IMG/VR virus record: IMGVR_UViG_3300032267_000041 | Location: 1-26,464 of that record | Source of the DNA: a virus | Taxonomy: Duplodnaviria > Caudoviricetes | Strand: one strand, 5' to 3' | Length of the DNA: 26,464 nt | In this document: one piece after another, positions 11,168 to 21,161 of the stretch | Numbering within the stretch: position 1 is the stretch's first letter | Layout of the letters: each line of letters opens with the position of its first letter | Program-made: the position numbers and the translations under genes | Notes under the pieces: generated by a model | Told to the model about the DNA's origin: nothing | Databases searched by the model: none | What the model saw: only the letters and a program-made list of their open reading frames with translations

Positions 11168-14100
11168 ATGAGAAATATAGATTGGGATTTTATCAGTAAT
11201 AGAGAAGGTAATGAAACTACTGGTTATGTACCTAGAAATAAAGATAATACTATAGATGAAAATTCTGGTGTAACTATTGGGGCTGGATTTGACCTTGGTC
11301 AACAAACAGAACAAACAATAAAAAATCTTGGTTTTAAAGATTTATCTATTCTTGACACAGTTAGACCTTACTTAGGTTTAAAAGGTGCTAAGGCAGATGA
11401 AATTGCTAAAAATTTAACAATACCAGAAGATAAGCTTCCAGATTTTAATAATACTGTAAATAATTATTATGCCGATAATATTGAAAAACAATATGATAAA
11501 TTAACTAGATATAAAAAATTTAATGAACTAGACCCAGCTTTACAAACAGTAATAACTTCTGTTGGTTTTCAGTATGGTGATTTAAAGCGTACTCCTAAAT
11601 TTTTTAAAGAAGCCTTAGATAATAATATTGAAGGTGTAGTTGCTGAACTTAGAAATTTTGGTGATGATTATTCTCCAAGAAGAAATTTAGAAGCAGATTA
11701 TTTAATAAATAAAATTTCAAATATAGATACTAAAAAAAAACTTGAAATAGCAGACGACCCACTTACTCAAAAAGAAATGAACGGGGAGCTGTATATGGAT
11801 AGAGTTTTTAAAACTTTTCAAAATCAACCAGAACCTAGACCAAGTTTATTTACTGGGGCGGCAACAGCGGCAAAATTAAATTTTCTTGCTTTTACACTTG
11901 GTAGAACTTTAATTAACCAAAGCTATACCCCAGACCCCAATGGATTTTCTTGGAAAGATAATGAAGTAGAAATAAAAAAAGCATTTAACGATAATCAAAT
12001 ACGTCCTGAGTATTACGAGTTTTTTACTGACGCTGTTTCTAGGGAGCATTTTTACCACTTAATAGACAGAGTTAAAATGGAGCAAGATAATAGAGACATT
12101 CTCCATAAAATGGGTGCTACAGGACTTTTCCTAGACATTGGCTCTTATGCTTTAGACCCAGCTAACTTAATAGGGTTTGGTTACATACAAAAAGCTATGA
12201 TGGCTAAACAGTCTTTAACAGCAAGTAGATTAGAGAGATTTTTTGAAAATGGATTAGTGTTTGGGGCTTACGAGGGAGTAACTATGAGTATTCAAGCTAA
12301 TGAAAGTCCAAGCGTTGGTGCTGTAGATGTTATAGTAGCGGCGGGATTAGGTGGTGCTCTTGGAGGCGGTATCAGTGTTATTGGAAAAGCACAATTATCA
12401 AGAGTAGCTAAAGATATTGAAAACCTAGAACTTAAAGACGCTGGTTTAAAGAAAACTCCAAAAGGTGAAAAATTATTTGAAGATGTAAACACTTCAAAAA
12501 TTGACGCAAAAACTCATTTAGATGTAAATGAATTATTAGATACTTCTGATGTAGTTGATAAATCTATTATATATTCAAGTGCTAGAGACTGGCCTGTAGC
12601 AAAACTTTTTAGTTTAACTAAATCAGGTTCATTTGGTAGCAGTTTATCAGAACTTGCAAGATCGTTTGCTTATAAATTTTTAGAAGACCCAATAGGGTAC
12701 GCTTTTAAAGGTGAAGGTAGGGTAAGTAAAAGAATAGCATCACAAGAAGAAACAGTAGAACTTATTAGAGACAAATATTTAGCTATATCTATGAATGGTG
12801 TCGCTAGAGAAGTTAGAGACGCATTAAACGAATATTTAAAAGAAAACGGTTTAAATTTCTGGAGTAGACTTGCAAACGTTAATGCCAGAACCGATTTCAT
12901 GCAAAAAGTAACTAGGGCTATTAGAACATTTGACCCTAATAATAAAAATTTATTAGATACAGAATTATTAAAAAATAAACATATAGCTAAAGCGGCAAAC
13001 GCTTATGCTGATGCTTTTGAACGTTGGGGTAAGACATTAAAAGAAAATGGAATTGAAGGTGCTGAGTTTAATGTTAATAGAGGTTATATCCCTAGAAGAT
13101 TATCTTTAGAAAGGTACGCTCAACTTGAAGCAAAGATTGGTGAAAGTGGAATTATAGAGCTAATTACTAAAGGTATATTAGATAAACAAAAATATTTAAA
13201 TATACCAAAAGATGCCGAGTTAAAAGCTTCATTAGGAGTTAAAGAACTTAAATACACAAAACCAAATTTTAACGAAATAAATAACACTAACCAAGCTGGT
13301 AAAATAGCTCAAATTAATAAGCTTAAAGCTGATTTGGAAAGAACTAAATTAGTTATTGCTTCAAAACAAAAAGAAGTATCACAAGCGGCAAAAGAAGAAG
13401 CTAAAAAGATTAAAGAACAAATTAAAAAATTAGAACAAGAAGTTAAAGATTCAAAAATTAAATTAGAAGCTGATTTTGTCGGCCCCGATAAAGCCGAGTT
13501 AATGGCTAAGGCTATTGTTTCTTATATTAAAAACTCAAAACGAACTGGTGGGTTTGATTTAGAAGCTTTATTAAGAGTTAAAGACCCTGAGAAACTAAAA
13601 GAATTTTTTAAAGAAAGTTTCCCCCATTTAAAACAAAATGAACTCGATGAGTTAACTAAAAATTTAGCTAACGTAATGTCGACGATTACGTCTGGTAGGT
13701 TAGTTGAAAGAATTAAATTAAATGAATCTTTTGAAGCTACAATTAAAGGTCAAAAAGTTAGATTAGATGAGCTTTATGAAAATAATATAGATTTATTATA
13801 CAACGACTATTCTCATGAAATGTCTGGCTGGTCAGCTATGGCAGAAAGAGTTGGTATTAAAAGTAGGGACGAATGGAACTCATATAAAAACTCATTAATT
13901 ACCGACATTGAAAAATCTTATTCAAAAGATCTAGCTAATAAACAAGGTATTAAAAGATGGTTTGGCGAAAGAAGATTACAAGAAGAAATTTCAACACTAG
14001 ATAGTGTATTTCAAAACTTAATGGGTAGAAGCGGAGAAGCTCAAACAGCATGGGCTGAAGCTGGTAGAACTTTAAGAAGATATAATTTTATTAGAGTATT

Positions 14101-15355
14101 AAACCAAGTCGGTATTGCTTCAATTCCTGAGTTAGGAAATATTATTTCTGCAACTGGTATTAAAGCTTTTGTTCAAAATATTCCTGAATTTAAAAATGCT
14201 TTAAGAAGTATGAGGTCTGGTGCGTTAGATGACGCATTTTTTAAAGAATTAAAATATATTGGTTATGATGGTTTTGGTGAGGACTACTTACGAAGAATAA
14301 CTCACGCTACAGAGCAAGCAGATCAAGGTACAGCACTTCACGCTATACAAAGTTCTGGTAAAGTAAATAATTTTTTAACTACTGGTGAAAAAATCACAAG
14401 CTGGACTTCTGGTCTCACAGTTGTTGACACTACGTTAAGAAGAATAGCGACAAGAGCTTTTATTGATAAGTTTGCTGATGAAATGATAAAATTAAAAGCA
14501 AGTAATTTTAATTTTAACGGAGTAAATTTAAACAGATACAAAGTTTTAGGATTTACCGAAGCTGAACTTAAAAAGTTTGCGAATGAGTTTTCAAATGGTG
14601 CGGTAACTACTGAAGCAACTTTTTGGGGAACAAAAGTTAAAGCATTTAATTTTGCTAATTGGAAAGACCACGAATTACTAACTACTTTCGCACATAGATT
14701 AAATAGACACGTTAAACGTACTGTTCAATATAATTTCATTGGAGATAGTTCACAATTTTTCTCTGATAACACACTGGGTAAAATGTTAGGGCAATTTAGA
14801 CAGTTCTCCATTGTTGCTTGGAATAAACAATTTTTACACAATGTAGCTATGGGTGATTTTAGAACTTTCTCTAATTTTACTACAACAACTTTTGTTGCCG
14901 CTTTAGCTTACATGGGTCAAACACATTTCAATTCTATTGGTATGGGTGCAAAAGAAAAAGCTGAATACCTTGAAAAAAGACTAGGATTAAAAGGTGATTA
15001 TTCAAAATTAGGTTTAGCCGCATTTCAAAGAACTGGTTGGTCTTCTGTAATGCCAGCATTTGCAGATATAGCTACAAGTGCTTTAGCTCCAAACTATAGA
15101 TTTAACACCAGAACAAGTGGGTTAGAAGTTAATTTATGGAATGGTAACCCAACAATAAGTTTATTAGGTGATGCCAAAGACGTTGGACTGTCTTTTTTAA
15201 AAGCAACTAGAAGTGATTATCGTTTTTCAAAAGTAGACTTGAGAAGATTTACTCATTTATTTGCTTGGAATAATTCATACGGAATTTCTAATCTTTTACA
15301 TCATTTAATAGATAACAGCCCGTTACCAGATACGGGTAAAGAAAATTTATTTTAA
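11168..15355 (+). CDS. internal virion protein D-like (gp16) with N-terminal pesticin-type muramidase domain
   Basis: 1395 aa; N-terminal IDWDFIS.REG...GYVP...SGVTIGAGFDLGQ...QTVITSVGFQYG...RR..EA; C-terminal G....QFR.F motif; synteny. Confidence 0.85.
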   Translation: MRNIDWDFISNREGNETTGYVPRNKDNTIDENSGVTIGAGFDLGQQTEQTIKNLGFKDLSILDTVRPYLGLKGAKADEIAKNLTIPEDKLPDFNNTVNNYYADNIEKQYDKLTRYKKFNELDPALQTVITSVGFQYGDLKRTPKFFKEALDNNIEGVVAELRNFGDDYSPRRNLEADYLINKISNIDTKKKLEIADDPLTQKEMNGELYMDRVFKTFQNQPEPRPSLFTGAATAAKLNFLAFTLGRTLINQSYTPDPNGFSWKDNEVEIKKAFNDNQIRPEYYEFFTDAVSREHFYHLIDRVKMEQDNRDILHKMGATGLFLDIGSYALDPANLIGFGYIQKAMMAKQSLTASRLERFFENGLVFGAYEGVTMSIQANESPSVGAVDVIVAAGLGGALGGGISVIGKAQLSRVAKDIENLELKDAGLKKTPKGEKLFEDVNTSKIDAKTHLDVNELLDTSDVVDKSIIYSSARDWPVAKLFSLTKSGSFGSSLSELARSFAYKFLEDPIGYAFKGEGRVSKRIASQEETVELIRDKYLAISMNGVAREVRDALNEYLKENGLNFWSRLANVNARTDFMQKVTRAIRTFDPNNKNLLDTELLKNKHIAKAANAYADAFERWGKTLKENGIEGAEFNVNRGYIPRRLSLERYAQLEAKIGESGIIELITKGILDKQKYLNIPKDAELKASLGVKELKYTKPNFNEINNTNQAGKIAQINKLKADLERTKLVIASKQKEVSQAAKEEAKKIKEQIKKLEQEVKDSKIKLEADFVGPDKAELMAKAIVSYIKNSKRTGGFDLEALLRVKDPEKLKEFFKESFPHLKQNELDELTKNLANVMSTITSGRLVERIKLNESFEATIKGQKVRLDELYENNIDLLYNDYSHEMSGWSAMAERVGIKSRDEWNSYKNSLITDIEKSYSKDLANKQGIKRWFGERRLQEEISTLDSVFQNLMGRSGEAQTAWAEAGRTLRRYNFIRVLNQVGIASIPELGNIISATGIKAFVQNIPEFKNALRSMRSGALDDAFFKELKYIGYDGFGEDYLRRITHATEQADQGTALHAIQSSGKVNNFLTTGEKITSWTSGLTVVDTTLRRIATRAFIDKFADEMIKLKASNFNFNGVNLNRYKVLGFTEAELKKFANEFSNGAVTTEATFWGTKVKAFNFANWKDHELLTTFAHRLNRHVKRTVQYNFIGDSSQFFSDNTLGKMLGQFRQFSIVAWNKQFLHNVAMGDFRTFSNFTTTTFVAALAYMGQTHFNSIGMGAKEKAEYLEKRLGLKGDYSKLGLAAFQRTGWSSVMPAFADIATSALAPNYRFNTRTSGLEVNLWNGNPTISLLGDAKDVGLSFLKATRSDYRFSKVDLRRFTHLFAWNNSYGISNLLHHLIDNSPLPDTGKENLF

Positions 15356-15373
15356 CAAACAACAAAAATATAT

Positions 15374-17434
15374 ATGTCATTTGCAATTAATAATTATACA
15401 GGAAATGGGAGTACAACTACATTTTCAGTTACGTTTCCGTACATAACTCAAAGCCATGTACAAGTACGAGTTAATAACGTATTAAAAACTTTAAGTGTTG
15501 ATTATACATTCCCAACATCTTCAACTATTCAATTTACAACTGCACCAGCAAACGGTGTAAACATAAATTTTAAAAGATCATCTAATCAATCTGCTAGATT
15601 AGTAGACTTCCAAGACGGTTCTACAATTACTGAGTCAATTTTAGATCAAGACAGTAATCAAATGTTTTACATGTCTCAGGAAGCTATTGATATAACTACT
15701 AATACAATAACTTTAGACACAGACGATAAGTACAACGCACAGTCTAAAGTAATTAAAAATTTAGCTAACCCAGTCAATGCTAACGATGCAGTAAATAAAA
15801 CATATTTAGAAAACACTTGGTTAAGCACAGCAGATAAAGCAACATTAACAAACTTAAATTCAAACATAGCAAGTGTTACAGCAGTCAATTCTGCTTTAAC
15901 AAATGTAAATGCTGTAGGTTCAGATTTATTAGAACCAGTATCAGAAATTAATACAGTAGCAGTAAGTATAGCTAACGTAGATACAGTTGGTACAAACATA
16001 GCCAATGTAAATACTGTAGCTGGTAATAATGTTAATATAACTACTGTAGCATCAGCAAATTCTAACATCACGACTGTCGCAGGAGCTAATGCAAACATTA
16101 CTTCTATAGCTAGTCAAATTACACCTACAAATAATATTTCTACAGTCGCAGGTGCAGTTGCTAATATAGGAACTGTCGCAACAAACATAGCCAATGTTAA
16201 TTTGGTAGGTGGTTCTATTGCTAACGTAAATACTGTAGCAAGTGCTAACGCAAATATTACAACAGTTGCTACAGCAAATACAAATATTGGAACAGTTGCT
16301 ACAAACATTGTAAATGTTAATTCAGTTGGTGGTTCTATAGCTAATGTAAATTCTGTAGCAGGAAATTCTACAAATATAAATGCAGTCAATTCAAATTCTG
16401 GAAATATAAATATCGTTGCAGGTGCTAACGCAAACATTGCAACACTAGCAGGAATATCAGGTGCAATAAGTACAGTAGCATCTAACGTAGGCAATATTTC
16501 TACAATAGCAACAGATATTGCTAAAGTAATAACTACTGCAAACGATTTAAATGAAGCCACTTCAGAAATTGAAGTTGTAGCTAATGCTATAGCTAATGTT
16601 GATATAGTTGGAAATAATATTGCTAACGTAAACACAGTTGGTACAAACATTGCTAACGTAAATATAGTTGGAAATAATATTGGAACAGTAAACGATTTTA
16701 CAAACAGATATAGAGTTGCGTCATCAGACCCAACTACATCTAAAGATGCTGGAGATTTAGTATTTAATACAACAGCAAATGCTCTTAAATATTATAATGG
16801 AACTACTTGGGAAGCTATCGTTGCTGGTGGTTTAACAGATATAGTTCAAGATGGTACACCTCAGTTAGGTGGTGCATTAGATGTTAATGGAAATTCAATA
16901 GTATCAACTTCTAATGCAAATATTAACATTACACCTCATGGAACAGGAAAAGTAGTATTAGACGGAATATCTTATCCAACTTCAGACGGAACAGCTAATC
17001 AATATATTAAAACAGATGGTGCTGGTGTTTTAAGTTTTGGAACAGTTGATTTAACTAATTTATCTGCTTCTAATTTAACATCAGGAACAGTACCAAGTGC
17101 AAGATTATCTTTAACATCTTCAGATTTGCCTACAGTACCAACAACAAAAGGCGGTACAGGTTTAACTACAATAGGAACTGCTGGACAAGCATTAGTAGTC
17201 AATGGTGCAGGAACAGCTTTAACATACGCAAATTCTTCTTCAGCAGAAGTATATGGATTTTCTTTTATTGATGCAGATGGAGATGGTTACAAAGAAAGTC
17301 TGCAAGTAACCACAACAAATAATGGTGCAGACAGTATTTCTAAAAGTAATCACGCGGCTTTTAGAGACGTAGTGTTTAGTGGAAGTGGTTATACATTTTC
17401 CATATCTGCGGGTGATTTAATATTAACTTTATAA
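15374..17434 (+). CDS. tail fibre protein (gp17-like N-terminal tail-anchor domain)
   Basis: YTGNGSTTTFSVTFPY...V.V.VN...I.F.TAPA.G..I...R...RLVDF.DGS...LD....Q..Y..QE; then a repeat shaft and the TPQLGG.LDVNG fibre motif. Confidence 0.93.
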   Translation: MSFAINNYTGNGSTTTFSVTFPYITQSHVQVRVNNVLKTLSVDYTFPTSSTIQFTTAPANGVNINFKRSSNQSARLVDFQDGSTITESILDQDSNQMFYMSQEAIDITTNTITLDTDDKYNAQSKVIKNLANPVNANDAVNKTYLENTWLSTADKATLTNLNSNIASVTAVNSALTNVNAVGSDLLEPVSEINTVAVSIANVDTVGTNIANVNTVAGNNVNITTVASANSNITTVAGANANITSIASQITPTNNISTVAGAVANIGTVATNIANVNLVGGSIANVNTVASANANITTVATANTNIGTVATNIVNVNSVGGSIANVNSVAGNSTNINAVNSNSGNINIVAGANANIATLAGISGAISTVASNVGNISTIATDIAKVITTANDLNEATSEIEVVANAIANVDIVGNNIANVNTVGTNIANVNIVGNNIGTVNDFTNRYRVASSDPTTSKDAGDLVFNTTANALKYYNGTTWEAIVAGGLTDIVQDGTPQLGGALDVNGNSIVSTSNANINITPHGTGKVVLDGISYPTSDGTANQYIKTDGAGVLSFGTVDLTNLSASNLTSGTVPSARLSLTSSDLPTVPTTKGGTGLTTIGTAGQALVVNGAGTALTYANSSSAEVYGFSFIDADGDGYKESLQVTTTNNGADSISKSNHAAFRDVVFSGSGYTFSISAGDLILTL
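15862..16705 (+). repeat. degenerate 10-residue (30-nt) coding tandem repeat in the tail fibre shaft
   Basis: About 27 units of the NIANVNTVAG / ANANITTVAT type counted by eye; exact 21-nt repeat atatagttggaaataatattg at 16602 and 16662. Confidence 0.85.
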
Positions 17435-17457
17435 AAAATAAAAAGGAGTAAAAAAAT

Positions 17458-17943
17458 ATGGCAACAGTAAATATAGGTCGTTTAAGATTTGTATGGAAAG
17501 GAACATATAGCGGAGCAACAGCTTATGTAGTTGATGATGTAGTTTATTATGCAGGTGGTTCTTATGTATGTATTCAAAACACAACAGGAAATGCTCCATC
17601 AACAGGAGTCAATACTGCTTATTGGAATGTAATGTCAGTTGGTGGAACAGATATAACTTCATTAGTTGGTTTAACATCAGGAGACATAATAGTTTGGGAC
17701 GGAACTGCTTGGGTTAGACTAGGCAAGGGAACAGCAGGACAAGTTTTAAAAGTAAATGCTGGTGGAACTGCACTTGAGTACGGAACTGTAGATTTATCAA
17801 ATGTTGTTAGTACTGCCGACACTACTAATAGTAGAAGTGGAAATGGTGGTGGTCAGACAGTCAGTTATGCAACTTTATATAAAAACACGAACACTAATGT
17901 ACGTTTGCAACTTAATACAAATTGCAACTGTAACTGTTGCTAA
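17458..17943 (+). CDS. short secondary tail fibre/adaptor protein with C-terminal NTNCNCNCC tail
   Basis: RBS aaggag; N-terminal W.G.Y...TAY..DDVV.Y.G.SY.C...YW module common in phage fibres; GD.IVWDG..W.RL.KGTAGQVL fibre repeat; Cys/Asn terminus. Confidence 0.8.
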   Translation: MATVNIGRLRFVWKGTYSGATAYVVDDVVYYAGGSYVCIQNTTGNAPSTGVNTAYWNVMSVGGTDITSLVGLTSGDIIVWDGTAWVRLGKGTAGQVLKVNAGGTALEYGTVDLSNVVSTADTTNSRSGNGGGQTVSYATLYKNTNTNVRLQLNTNCNCNCC

Positions 17944-17973
17944 AATAATTAACAAAAAGGAAAATATAAAAAT

Positions 17974-18711
17974 ATGAAAATAATTTATTCAGTAGTGGCT
18001 AGAATGGCACACAGAATTAAAGTTACTGTAAATCAAAATGGATTTATAGTTTCTCAAAAAATGAAAAATGAAGAAGGAACAGAAACTATTTATTTTTCTG
18101 ATACAGAAGTGTTATATGAGGATATAAAAGCAAGAGCAGATTTCGCAGACCATTCTTGTTATAATATTTTTGAAGGAAAACTTGGTGTTTTTAATATGTT
18201 TGCTAACAGCAAATCAGCTAAATTATCTGGTCAAGATTTTGCTATTTTTAATGGTGGTAATTCAGCAGTATGTTTAATTATTCCATTTAAAAATTCTCCA
18301 GTTGAAGATTGGGTGTTAAGTATTAATGTTCAAAAAGATGAACCAGAATGGTTTGAATTAGTAGGTGCTACTGGCACACAAATGTTAATTAATCATTGTG
18401 GTCATAGTGCTGGGAGAGCAGATAATCTTCCTTTAGTACACTTTGATAATGCAAGTATATCAGGAGATACTAACGAAGTATTAGAACTTCCATTTACAGT
18501 TAAAAACGCAGATGGAACTACAGCAAATATAGACGCAGAAGTTTATTTTGAAACTACTGGTGGATTTTTACCAGTAACAAGAAAAGTAGTAAAAGGAAAT
18601 GGCACAGCTTTTATTAGTTTAAGAGACATTCCAAAAGGGGAGAGATTTAAAGTTAAAGTAGGTTTTAAAAACTTTAGTGGTATCTCCGAATGTCAAGTAA
18701 CAGTAAATTAA
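17974..18711 (+). CDS. hypothetical protein, C-terminal part predicted beta-sandwich/Ig-like
   Basis: RBS-like aagga; alternating beta-strand pattern in the last ~90 aa (LPFTVKN...EVYFETTGG...FKVKVGFK...CQVTV); the fold is inferred. Confidence 0.75.
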   Translation: MKIIYSVVARMAHRIKVTVNQNGFIVSQKMKNEEGTETIYFSDTEVLYEDIKARADFADHSCYNIFEGKLGVFNMFANSKSAKLSGQDFAIFNGGNSAVCLIIPFKNSPVEDWVLSINVQKDEPEWFELVGATGTQMLINHCGHSAGRADNLPLVHFDNASISGDTNEVLELPFTVKNADGTTANIDAEVYFETTGGFLPVTRKVVKGNGTAFISLRDIPKGERFKVKVGFKNFSGISECQVTVN

Positions 18712-19292
18712 TACAGCTTTGGCAGTCTGATATAGTTATTGATTATCAAAATAGAGAAACTTTAAACAATCAATTACTTCCTTATCTTTTAGATAAATAC
18801 AAACAAACAAGTCTTGGTAAAGAACATTACGAAAGAATACCTCATAATATCTTTGCTGATAATTTTGAACCAGTAAATCAATTAAAAGAATTATTAATTA
18901 ATACTACTAAAAATTATTATGACATTGGTGGTTTGGAATTTGATATTGAGGGACATGAAATAGTAAGCCACGACAGGCAATTTATTAAAACTCATGTAGA
19001 TACTGAAGAAGGCGATTTAACATTTCAATATTATGTTAAAGCACCAAAAGAAAACGAAGATAAAGAAACAAATTCTTTTGGTAATGCTTCGTTTGTTTTA
19101 GTTAATCCTGCTAGACCTGCTGGTTCTTTTACTTTTAAAAACGAACACTATTTAGAATATCCAGTTCTTCCTAAAGAGGGATTATTAATAATGTATCGTT
19201 CTTATATTCCGCATTATCAAAATCCATACGAAGGTAATGATGAGTTAGTTCAAGTAGTGGCTAATATTAAATTTAAAAGAGATTTACATTAA
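18690..19292 (+). CDS. putative 2OG-Fe(II) oxygenase superfamily protein
   Basis: HxD (THVD) followed by QYYVKAP, FVLVNP.RP, and PKEGLLIMYRSYIPH with the distal His; layout of phage 2OG-Fe(II) oxygenases. Confidence 0.75.
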   Translation: MSSNSKLIQLWQSDIVIDYQNRETLNNQLLPYLLDKYKQTSLGKEHYERIPHNIFADNFEPVNQLKELLINTTKNYYDIGGLEFDIEGHEIVSHDRQFIKTHVDTEEGDLTFQYYVKAPKENEDKETNSFGNASFVLVNPARPAGSFTFKNEHYLEYPVLPKEGLLIMYRSYIPHYQNPYEGNDELVQVVANIKFKRDLH

Positions 19293-20710
19293 TGCCAGAA
19301 TTTAAATTGGTATGCCAAAAAAGAGGTATGCCAAACTACTATTACTTAACAGCAGAACCTAAAATATTTTATTATAATTCTGAAACAAGTTCTTTGTTAG
19401 ATGAAAATAGAAATCAAGTTATAGAACAAGAAATAAAACAAGACCAAAAACTTGGTTGGAATTGGACTAAAGATAATCCAGCAACAAAAACAAAAGCAAT
19501 AAGACATCTTAAAATTTCTTTAGGATTATCTTGTAATTACTCTTGTAGTTATTGCTCTCAAAGATTTATTCCAAACGCAGACGAAACAACTAAAAAAGAA
19601 GTACCACAATTTTTAGAAAGATTTTCAAGTTGGTATGATGGTGGAGAAGATGGTCTAGGCAAAGGAACTAAAATTGAATTTTGGGGTGGAGAACCTTTAG
19701 TTTATTGGAAAACATTAAAACCATTGGCAGAAGGTATAAAAGAAAAATATCCCAACATGATATTTGGTATGATTACCAATGGAACTCTTTTAGATGACGA
19801 AAAGATTGAGTGGATTGACAAACTTGGCTTTAGTATTGGAATGTCTCACGATGGTGTTGGTTATCATATTAGAGGTAAAGACCCATTAGATAATCCAAAG
19901 CAAAAAGAAATGATTATGAAATTGTGGAATATATTATCTCCACAAGGCAGAATGAGTATTAATGCCATGCTTCATAAAGCAAATATGAGCAGAGCAGATA
20001 TACAAGAATTTTTATTAAAATATTTTGGAGAAAACCTAGTTATAGGCGAAGGCGAGTTTATTGATGCTTATGACGTTGGTGGAGTAGCCAGTTCACTAAC
20101 TACACAAAAAGAACAAATAAAATTTAGAACAAAATCTTTAGATGAAATTTCTTCTGGTAAGGCAGATAGATTTAGTGTTCTTCCAATGAAAATCGATGGT
20201 TTTATTAATACTATTGTAAATGGTAAATATAAAAGTTCAGTTTCACAAAAGTGCGGAATAGATAATCCTAATAGTCTTACAGTAGATTTAAAAGGAAACA
20301 CTATTACTTGCCAAAATGTTTCTTCTGTAGCAACAGCTCCTAATGGAGAAAGTCATCATACAGGAAGTGTTTATGATTTTAATAATATTAAAATGAAATC
20401 TATAACAACTTGGCAGAACAGAAAAAATTGCTCTAAGTGTCCAGTATTACATATCTGCAAAGCATCTTGTATGTTCTTAGATGGTGATTTATTTCAAGCA
20501 AGTTGTGATAATTCTTACTCAGATAATATAGTTTTCTTTGCGTTAGCTATAGAAAAGCTAACTGGATATTTACCAATTAGAGTTGAGGGTCAGCATCATA
20601 GACCAGACAGAGAAGATGTTTGGGGTTTAAGTGGTTTTCCAGTTGAACCAGTAAAACAAAAAGAATTACCAAAAAAATATAATTTTAACATTAATGGAGC
20701 AACAGTATGA
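19292..20710 (+). CDS. radical SAM enzyme with SPASM domain
   Basis: CxxxCxxC (CNYSCSYC), FWGGEP, ITNGTLL, SHDG; C-terminal KCG...TCQ...CSKCPVLHICKASC...C, containing the Cx2Cx5Cx3C SPASM motif. Confidence 0.95.
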   Translation: MPEFKLVCQKRGMPNYYYLTAEPKIFYYNSETSSLLDENRNQVIEQEIKQDQKLGWNWTKDNPATKTKAIRHLKISLGLSCNYSCSYCSQRFIPNADETTKKEVPQFLERFSSWYDGGEDGLGKGTKIEFWGGEPLVYWKTLKPLAEGIKEKYPNMIFGMITNGTLLDDEKIEWIDKLGFSIGMSHDGVGYHIRGKDPLDNPKQKEMIMKLWNILSPQGRMSINAMLHKANMSRADIQEFLLKYFGENLVIGEGEFIDAYDVGGVASSLTTQKEQIKFRTKSLDEISSGKADRFSVLPMKIDGFINTIVNGKYKSSVSQKCGIDNPNSLTVDLKGNTITCQNVSSVATAPNGESHHTGSVYDFNNIKMKSITTWQNRKNCSKCPVLHICKASCMFLDGDLFQASCDNSYSDNIVFFALAIEKLTGYLPIRVEGQHHRPDREDVWGLSGFPVEPVKQKELPKKYNFNINGATV

Positions 20711-20823
20711 AAAACAAAGACTGTAAATGTAAACCATGTACCTGCGGAAAAGAAGTTACCTGCAAGTGTGCTGAGAAAGTAACGAAGCTAAAAGAAAAAC
20801 TTAAACAACTAACAAAAAAATAA
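20707..20823 (+). CDS. 38-aa Cys-rich peptide (CxC x3), metallothionein-like or RiPP-precursor-like
   Basis: Below the ORF-track cutoff; my translation is MKNKDCKCKPCTCGKEVTCKCAEKVTKLKEKLKQLTKK; ATGA overlap with the rSAM stop. Confidence 0.7.
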   Translation: MKNKDCKCKPCTCGKEVTCKCAEKVTKLKEKLKQLTKK

Positions 20824-20824
20824 C

Positions 20825-20947
20825 ATGACAATATTATTAATGACATTAAGTTTTATCGCAGGAGCTTGGTTAGCATGGAGATATGAAAATATATTAGATG
20901 ATTTCATAGAACACTTTAAAGGATTAAATAATAAAAAAGATTCTTAA
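20825..20947 (+). CDS. 40-aa small membrane protein
   Basis: My translation is MTILLMTLSFIAGAWLAWRYENILDDFIEHFKGLNNKKDS; hydrophobic N-terminus; starts 1 nt after the previous stop. Confidence 0.6.
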   Translation: MTILLMTLSFIAGAWLAWRYENILDDFIEHFKGLNNKKDS

Positions 20948-20951
20948 AAAA

Positions 20952-21161
20952 ATGACACCTTATACATTTGAAGAAATACAATTTTTAAACAAACCAACAC
21001 AAGAGGAAAATATGTTCACACCTAAATTTGAAATTCCTTCTTACGAAGAAGCTAAGAAAGCTACAGAAAACTTCGCAGGACAGGTTCAGAAATTTTGGGC
21101 AGATGCTTTCAAAGACTACGCAAAGTCAGTTGAAGCATTTTTTCAAAATAACAAAAAGTAA
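20952..21161 (+). CDS. hypothetical amphipathic helical protein (likely start at ATG 21012)
   Basis: ORF track; gagga RBS precedes the internal ATG at 21012 (MFTPKFEIP..., 49 aa). Confidence 0.6.
   Translation: MTPYTFEEIQFLNKPTQEENMFTPKFEIPSYEEAKKATENFAGQVQKFWADAFKDYAKSVEAFFQNNKK

Follow-up and report, generated by a model that had tools for sequence, protein, structure and literature searches.

We analyzed a 26,464-base stretch of phage DNA, IMG/VR record IMGVR_UViG_3300032267_000041 (about 64% complete; the whole stretch is called the window below), and found that a second tail-fibre gene ending in the Asn-Cys run NCNCNCC lies in a five-gene cassette together with a 245-aa partner protein, a probable oxygenase, a radical SAM/SPASM enzyme, and a small CxC peptide. 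The linkage between such runs and this kind of enzyme is far above chance. The Asn-Cys run is probably the substrate of the enzyme, and we assign a probability of roughly 0.55 to the reading that the enzyme forms Cys-Asn thioethers, which would either hold the tip of the fibre in shape or attach the 245-aa partner to it. The module, its linkage and its exchange, the fold and cysteine pattern of the enzyme, and the pattern of variation in the fibre are all matters of observation.

The linkage was examined in both directions. From 120 listed homologues, 60 were aligned for an enzyme profile, and the best 80 loci were taken from each of the viral (277 confirmed), genome (230), and metagenome (374) collections. 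Addition of the window and of loci found earlier brought the total to 248 loci, and to 246 after L007, which failed the profile, and L003, which belongs to a distant family, had been removed; RP12-type and other weak phage radical SAM matches (27–33%) were likewise set aside as other families. The forward rule counted an open reading frame (ORF) of at least 90 codons that ended in an Asn/Asp-Cys run, or in which a Hint-like start came directly after the run, and the count was limited to the 137 loci with at least 5 kb upstream. An Asn-Cys-tailed ORF lay upstream of the enzyme in 128 of these 137 loci; when the set was dereplicated, the counts became 77 of 85 (90% level) and 38 of 43 (70% level). 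By the same rule, 0 of 124 loci had such an ORF downstream, and 5 of 246 had one on the other strand. Nine loci were missed by the rule: RSP15 has two Cys only, the tailed protein of L073 (82 aa) is below the length limit, L080 has a longer Cys tail, and in L013, L029, and L038 the partner lies at the 5-kb edge with the fibre out of view; the other three are considered further below.

When IMG/VR was searched for the run followed by a stop codon, without use of the enzyme, 126 loci were obtained, 40 of them with short flanks. Where NCNCNC ended a long frame with at least 3.5 kb downstream, the enzyme was found near 28 of 32 frames, several of these enzyme-linked frames being near-copies; where it ended a short frame, the count was 0 of 28. 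Of 127 genomes from a single freshwater genus, 19 had the enzyme and 18 had partner B, all of the latter within those 19, the partner profile including loci from genomes of this genus; an 18-base Asn-Cys pattern was at or below the control level in these 127 genomes and hence uninformative. The cassette was found in a myovirus (RSP15), a siphovirus (JWF), podoviruses, and the tail regions of prophages. The preliminary description of this DNA had named missing linkage between homologues of the enzyme and Cys-tailed fibre genes as one outcome that would speak against it; instead, the Cys-tailed fibre, a partner, and the enzyme co-occurred almost always.

A control within the phage lineage was anchored on a 69-aa gene (20952–21161), which borders the variable tail region on its right and is 69–100% conserved in 47 IMG/VR loci, 23 of which had at least 2.2 kb upstream. 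The slot was occupied by the cassette in 11 loci and by ordinary structural genes in 12, two of the 12 with the same fibre base, and the Asn-Cys run was present in 9 of 9 cassette loci with enough DNA. The cultured phages HTVC025P and Gjalp carry a homologous fibre base (gp41 and gp33, respectively), but there it ends in a head of about 150 aa, of globular size, without the Cys run and is followed by an 84- or 93-aa gene, with no enzyme. In all, 22 phage records matched the fibre base, and none of them was among the 23 records matched by the enzyme. Thus, since the cassette and ordinary structural genes alternate in the same slot, the cassette is an alternative tip module.

A 4.7-kb block of the window (16253–20952), which takes in the primary fibre's distal half and the whole cassette and stops shortly beyond it, recurs with 93.7% identity in the L004/L374 contig, in which the upstream part of the fibre matches HTVC100P/Skadi-type pelagiphages. 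The shared block and the differing upstream fibre therefore indicate that the module moves between two podovirus backbones. A divergent enzyme subfamily (approximately 410–420 bits versus 710) was also seen in the same phage lineage (L397, L404, L410–L424, L425–L457), behind a different tailed protein of about 200 aa and with varying oxygenases. L422/L437/L439 and L473 contain a second radical SAM gene.

The enzyme (472 aa; 19292..20710, + strand) had been called a radical SAM/SPASM protein from its sequence, and this call was borne out by matches to PF04055 and phrog_1802 (E 5e-64) and by a seven-Cys SPASM pattern. C81, C85, and C88 (CxxxCxxC) and G132-G133-E134 (GGE) were invariant in 60 homologues. 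The SPASM cysteines of the window enzyme are C321, C340, C380, C383, C389, C393, and C405; seven such cysteines were present in 227 of 228 complete ORFs, and the 30 residues that precede them held an additional Cys in 0 of 227. By analogy with CrpC, seven Cys are predicted to leave an open iron on AuxI. In the AlphaFold2 (AF2) model of the enzyme, with a predicted local distance difference test score (pLDDT) of 91.9, the closest fold according to both Foldseek and VIA was CteB (5WHY; Z 22.2, root-mean-square deviation (rmsd) 4.2, 348 aligned residues, model range 1–425). A three-stranded N-terminal sheet (residues 3–36) aligned with the start of CteB, at the position of the recognition element, and no helices were modelled there. 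The fold and the cysteines fit a thioether-forming maturase, and the model suggests that the enzyme is likely to be of the peptide cross-linking kind of radical SAM protein, while belonging to no curated maturase family. At E ≤ 0.001, its own family runs to 2,199 protein clusters, close and less close relatives included.

On this basis, we propose that the cassette genes would be co-expressed late and that the enzyme would bind the C-terminal end of the fibre. A 5'-deoxyadenosyl radical would then abstract the beta-hydrogen of Asn, and a Cys bound to AuxI would form a thioether to the Asn beta-carbon at overlapping N-x-x-C sites. The locked, headless tip might present the variable segment of the fibre and engage partner B, which could serve as a tip-binding chaperone or cap, and specificity would come from the variable segment and the N-terminal domain of the partner.

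Several observations weigh against thioether formation on the run by this enzyme. The collections overlap and the forward loci are partly redundant, so that the linkage counts are not independent; three of the loci missed by the forward rule either look disrupted (L016, L142) or are without a tailed gene beside the enzyme (L083), and 4 of the 32 long NCNCNC ORFs lacked a nearby enzyme. The identity between CteB and the window enzyme is 17%, and the chemistry is not fixed by the family. No curated NCBIfam maturase cut-off was reached, the best score being that for PapB (NF047865; 59.1 bits versus 340), and all 25 models shown were far below (for example, 38 versus 425 for TIGR03974 in the CteB comparison, and 28 versus 525 for TIGR04463 and 38 versus 453 for TIGR03906 in the comparison with CrpC and QhpD). 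The next folds after CteB were ChlB, anSME, and TigE (Z 18–19 for anSME and ChlB), and the best sequence-profile match in PDB was TigE, aligning from residue 1. TigE, anSME, and ChlB catalyze other reactions. In addition, 10 of the 438 residues before Cys in the runs are Gly, with which no beta-thioether is possible.

The same fold and profile matches, together with the large distances to curated maturases, would agree with some other radical chemistry on the run: formation of thioaldehyde or formylglycine, a C–C bond or cyclopropane, epimerization, or a cross-link between chains or between fibre and partner. We consider this a minority possibility, clearly less probable than Cys-Asn thioethers. 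The eighth, upstream cluster-binding Cys that we take sulfatase maturases to carry was missing in 227 of 227 ORFs, and a strictly terminal-Cys reaction does not fit tails of which 75 of 91, but not all, end in Cys. An identity as anSME itself was rejected, as the score against TIGR03942 was 35 bits versus 349, none of the 227 ORFs had the upstream Cys, and no sulfatase was found in the window.

The thioether reading draws further on the composition of the run. In 91 dereplicated tails, the residue before Cys was Asn at 308, Asp at 44, Ala at 34, and Gln at 9 of 438 positions, these four residues thus filling 395 of them. The tailed proteins were approximately 107 to 891 aa long and the sequence before the run was not conserved; the run itself differed little between prophages of Betaproteobacteria and those of Alphaproteobacteria. 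A Hint-like self-cleaving domain follows in frame in L002 (5793–7244), L082, L100, L162, and L473 (1684–3312). Since this domain starts right after the run, the run would become an exposed C-terminus.

It is also conceivable that the CxC pairs of three chains bind a metal or an Fe-S cluster along the fibre axis, with the enzyme or the cassette helping in metal loading, or acting on the partner or some other target. According to the available text of PMC6957217, the T4 gp37 needle holds seven irons whose ligands are His residues, H929 and H931 among them. His-rich strands were found before the run in 3 of 91 tails and a further Asn-Cys pair within 60 residues upstream in 64 of 91, and the CxC peptide could carry metal. 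However, a metal core leaves both the Asn preference between the Cys (308/438) and the intact radical SAM motif with its peptide-maturase fold unexplained, and T4-type needles, as described in the same text, need chaperones only. We therefore regard a metal core as improbable.

In contigs of the T4-like type, the tail belongs to a small Cys-rich protein whose gene immediately precedes that of the enzyme (L079 5518–5937, L080 5471–5941, L009 5574–5915, L073 5734–5982); L079 has a fibre with an S74 chaperone upstream of it. Four ORFs of 185–203 codons that have NCNCNC at their end but no enzyme closer than 5 kb (L262, L265, L312, L324) probably encode unrelated proteins.

The secondary fibre of the window (161 aa; 17458..17943, + strand) was confirmed as a fibre-type protein by its match to a tail-fibre PHROG (phrog_9851, E 2.5e-16, residues 11–142), and its C-terminal NCNCNCC is as first described. 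Its base (residues 1–112; 17458..17793, + strand) shares 51–54% identity with the N-terminal parts of HTVC025P gp41 and Gjalp gp33 and is likely to dock on the primary fibre. The base is followed by a hypervariable segment (about residues 115–153; 17800..17917, + strand), recognized by comparison with L004 and population contigs and a candidate host-specificity loop, and by the run N155–C161 with its stop codon (17920..17943, + strand), the predicted substrate, which contains two overlapping N-x-x-C motifs.

Compared with L004, the fibre showed 4 differences in the first 120 residues and 24 in the next 39, with the Asn-Cys run kept, and partner B showed 26 in its first 80 residues and 3 in the last 85. 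In contigs of the sequencing runs X2, X3, and X4, positions 17800–17917 are swapped for 115 other letters, which rejoin the window sequence just before the Asn-Cys run; a contig of sequencing run X8 has 145 other letters in place of the segment up to 17944. The window allele coexists with the replacement in X2 and X4, at lower depth. The L004 tip, one codon shorter, may be the allele seen in the X2/X3/X4 contigs. The pattern is that of a specificity loop beside a fixed structural element.

The third gene of the cassette, that for the probable Fe(II) double-stranded beta-helix oxygenase (200 aa; 18690..19292, + strand), gave a weak match to 2-oxoglutarate (2OG)-Fe(II) oxygenases of the PF13759/TIGR02466 type (PF13759, 21.5 bits versus a cut-off of 27; phrog_81, E 2e-7), and a PDB sequence search gave no meaningful match. 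The iron triad H102, D104, and H175 is intact, with the two His present in 154 and 155 of 155 family rows. The late 2OG-binding Arg was present in 46 of 155 rows; the window protein has Leu186, with Lys194 nearby. An oxygenase downstream in L397 passes PF13759. Loci with the oxygenase family of the window numbered 94 out of 137, and 21 out of 43 once dereplicated at 70%, the count being for this family and not for oxygenases of other types. The preliminary description had proposed that the phage both cross-links and hydroxylates its own fibre tip: the cross-linking part is supported by linkage, fold, and cysteines, but hydroxylation is not a core step, because the oxygenase family is confined to that fraction of the loci.

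Beta-hydroxy-Asn and beta-hydroxy-Asp are known iron ligands, and within the lineage the oxygenase was present in 10 of 11 cassette loci versus 0 of 12 others. Both points would suit the proposal, also made at the outset, that the peptide, once cross-linked and hydroxylated, is what contacts the receptor on the host, by mimicking a siderophore. We regard this as very improbable: the oxygenase family is missing from 43 of 137 loci, and the run is nearly unchanged between prophages of the two proteobacterial classes. Moreover, since the run is invariant while the preceding 39 codons are swapped within populations, it is unlikely to be a receptor ligand or siderophore mimic, and the variation resides in the flanking segment and the N-terminal domain of the partner.

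The CxC peptide (38 aa, basic, with three CxC; 20707..20823, + strand) had been listed as a member of the cassette. This holds in so far as it tracks the cassette in the lineage (9 of 11 cassette loci versus 0 of 12 cassette-free loci; Fisher p 7e-5, inflated by near-copies), although it is a lineage-restricted accessory and is absent from the L404 cassette. In IMG/VR, the enzyme was at most 1.4 kb away in 14 of 14 loci with upstream DNA. That it is a plain backbone gene is ruled out by its absence from 12 of 12 cassette-free loci, and a universal component it is not, as among 407 loci only the L004/L374 contig and L397 had it. Metal binding or service as a second substrate are guesses at its role. 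The oxygenase and the CxC peptide would thus both seem to be optional helpers.

Partner B (245 aa; 17974..18711, + strand) consists of an N-terminal alpha/beta domain (residues 1–152) and a C-terminal bacterial immunoglobulin (Ig)-like domain (153–245). In the AF2 model (pLDDT 95.7), the Ig domain resembled intimin (1f02; Z 10.4, rmsd 2.2, 87 aligned residues), and similar matches were obtained alongside it. The window protein matched no Pfam or PHROG family, and the ESM Atlas held no usable match for residues 1–152. When the family was considered as Tfa or gp38, its 78 members matched only Big_1 (4), Invasin_D3 (3), and single weak others, although the place right behind the fibre gene is one that it has in common with those chaperones and adhesins.

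Partner B starts within 150 nt after the tailed gene in 105 of 111 loci. It is replaced in 16 of 137 loci by family C, proteins of about 235 aa with a helical C-terminus and no Pfam match (for example, L002 7231–7953 and L126 5174–5944; 31 more ORFs were seen); B or C was present in 132 of 137 loci and both together in none. Near-identical tips occur with either partner. The best cross-scores between the N-terminal domains of B and C were 12.2 and 9.8 bits versus 2.9 and 3.3 for reversed sequences, and a colinear global alignment was not significant (E 0.066, probability 0.5%); B and C would appear to be unrelated or very distant families. Thus, since a partner is almost always present but B and C can be swapped, the partner is nearly obligatory yet interchangeable, which would fit a tip chaperone or cap. 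In L013, L029, and L038, at least five extra genes, some desaturase- or hydroxylase-like by eye, lie between partner B and the enzyme.

On the enzyme tree, a quick version with no bootstrap, the switch between B and C needs at least three changes, and the tail is kept. These changes and the two-way linkage across unrelated phage types leave hardly any probability for the idea that the enzyme is an auxiliary gene hitch-hiking in a recombination hot spot, with no substrate in the fibre, even though radical SAM cassettes do occur in the variable host-recognition islands of pelagimyophages (PMC7029224, available text).

Returning to Cys-Asn thioethers, a wider possibility, which we advance tentatively and rate below the thioether reading itself, is that many unrelated phages make the fibre tip as a biosynthetic product. 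Thioether rings or inter-chain links would fasten a swappable cap, with optional tailoring, and the module would travel between virus families as a third kind of tip.

The gene layout agreed with the preliminary description: five co-oriented ORFs on the + strand directly follow the main tail fibre, and the last four overlap by 22 nt, by TAATG at 19290–19294, and by ATGA at 20707–20710. Family searches found no protease or transporter genes in the cassette of the window, and the cassette does not show the hallmarks of a pathway for a peptide that is ribosomally synthesized and modified after translation (RiPP), namely a short precursor, a conserved leader, a protease, and an exporter. It resembles a RiPP pathway in operation, yet is not one, a RiPP being a released peptide product. 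The primary fibre (686 aa; 15374..17434, + strand) has a T7-type N-terminal domain (PF03906, E 3e-39), and its top tblastn match was HTVC025P, over residues 1–686. Its last 70 residues or so are conserved (59% and 55% identical to HTVC025P and Gjalp, respectively), and this end is common to the pelagiphage fibres that have a second fibre gene of the same kind behind them. Between populations, the length of the repeat region in the primary fibre (15900–16700) differs, with joints skipping 255–369 nt.

Family searches identified the window as the late region of a T7-type podovirus, with portal, scaffold, capsid, tail tube, nozzle, internal proteins, fibre, and terminases. The terminase shares 57–58% identity with the terminases of Rhizobium phage RHEph01 and of Pelagibacter phages, HTVC019P and HTVC022P among them, the top matches of the primary fibre were pelagiphage fibres, and the sequencing runs containing the stretch were labelled freshwater or lake wherever a habitat was given. 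A freshwater SAR11 host is therefore likely. A 1395-aa internal virion protein (11168–15355) carries an N-terminal Pesticin-type lysozyme domain (PF16754, E 8e-35). A promoter and terminator scan was at chance level (30 found versus 33.6 expected). An 840-nt contig of RNA run X7 covers 17506–18345 with one difference, which is no proof of transcription.

Tail-fibre tips decide host range, and the common assumption is that they consist of plain folded protein. If a radical enzyme is indeed dedicated to the fibre end, this would be a new kind of virion maturation; it would explain why virions may need the Fe-S supply of the host, affect the prediction of host range, and offer enzymes for cross-linking a C-terminal tag on large proteins. 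The enzyme family is large and extends to phages of SAR11-type hosts.

Among known systems, HTVC025P gp41/gp42 and Gjalp gp33/gp32 share the slot and the homologous fibre base with the module, but have heads of about 150 aa and neither partner B nor the enzyme. T4 gp37/gp38, in the accessible part of the literature, is similar in having spaced metal-capable residue pairs near the fibre end and a helper gene directly downstream, whereas its residues are His instead of Cys, there is no modifying enzyme, and partner B has an Ig domain and no gp38/Tfa match. The radical SAM cassettes of pelagimyophage host-recognition islands can be likened by description only, the substrate being unnamed in the text of PMC7029224 available to us. 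We found no published description of the system, subscription journals, including the original descriptions of JWF and RSP15, being outside the search; the term 'radical SAM' is absent from the texts of PMC6811365 and bioRxiv 10.64898/2026.02.18.706586, supplements aside. The proposed system, an enzymatically finished, swappable fibre tip, has no counterpart among the systems found, while the bond type itself may be of a known kind. New here are the case of a T7-type SAR11 phage and the matched controls.

For the chemistry, the closest comparison is with NxxcB, which links Cys to the beta-carbon of Asn and tolerates Ala, Gln, and Asp (PMC9389541, available part). These are the same acceptors that fill 395 of 438 positions before Cys in the phage runs, and NCNC reads as N-x-x-C; the likeness of the predicted chemistry to that of NxxcB/NxxcA is suggestive but no proof. 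NxxcA receives one cross-link in a small peptide, whereas the phage run, located where a structural protein ends, can hold several motifs that overlap. CrpC of the CrpC/CrpA pair (Methanococcus voltae) and QhpD of QhpD/QhpC are likewise seven-Cys SPASM enzymes that make thioethers in proteins rather than in peptides, the seven Cys of CrpC being read as leaving an open iron for the substrate thiol (PMC13692751, as far as available). Their substrates are cellular and have C-x-x-Q/D repeats, and the available text and three supplements of that paper contain no mention of phages. The SCIFF ranthipeptide maturase CteB (PDB 5WHY, 5WGG) shares the fold, with radical SAM and seven-Cys SPASM domains, but acts on a short precursor, the presumed substrate of the window enzyme being a virion protein. 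Taken together, the system is likely to work like a ranthionine maturase acting on a part of the virion.

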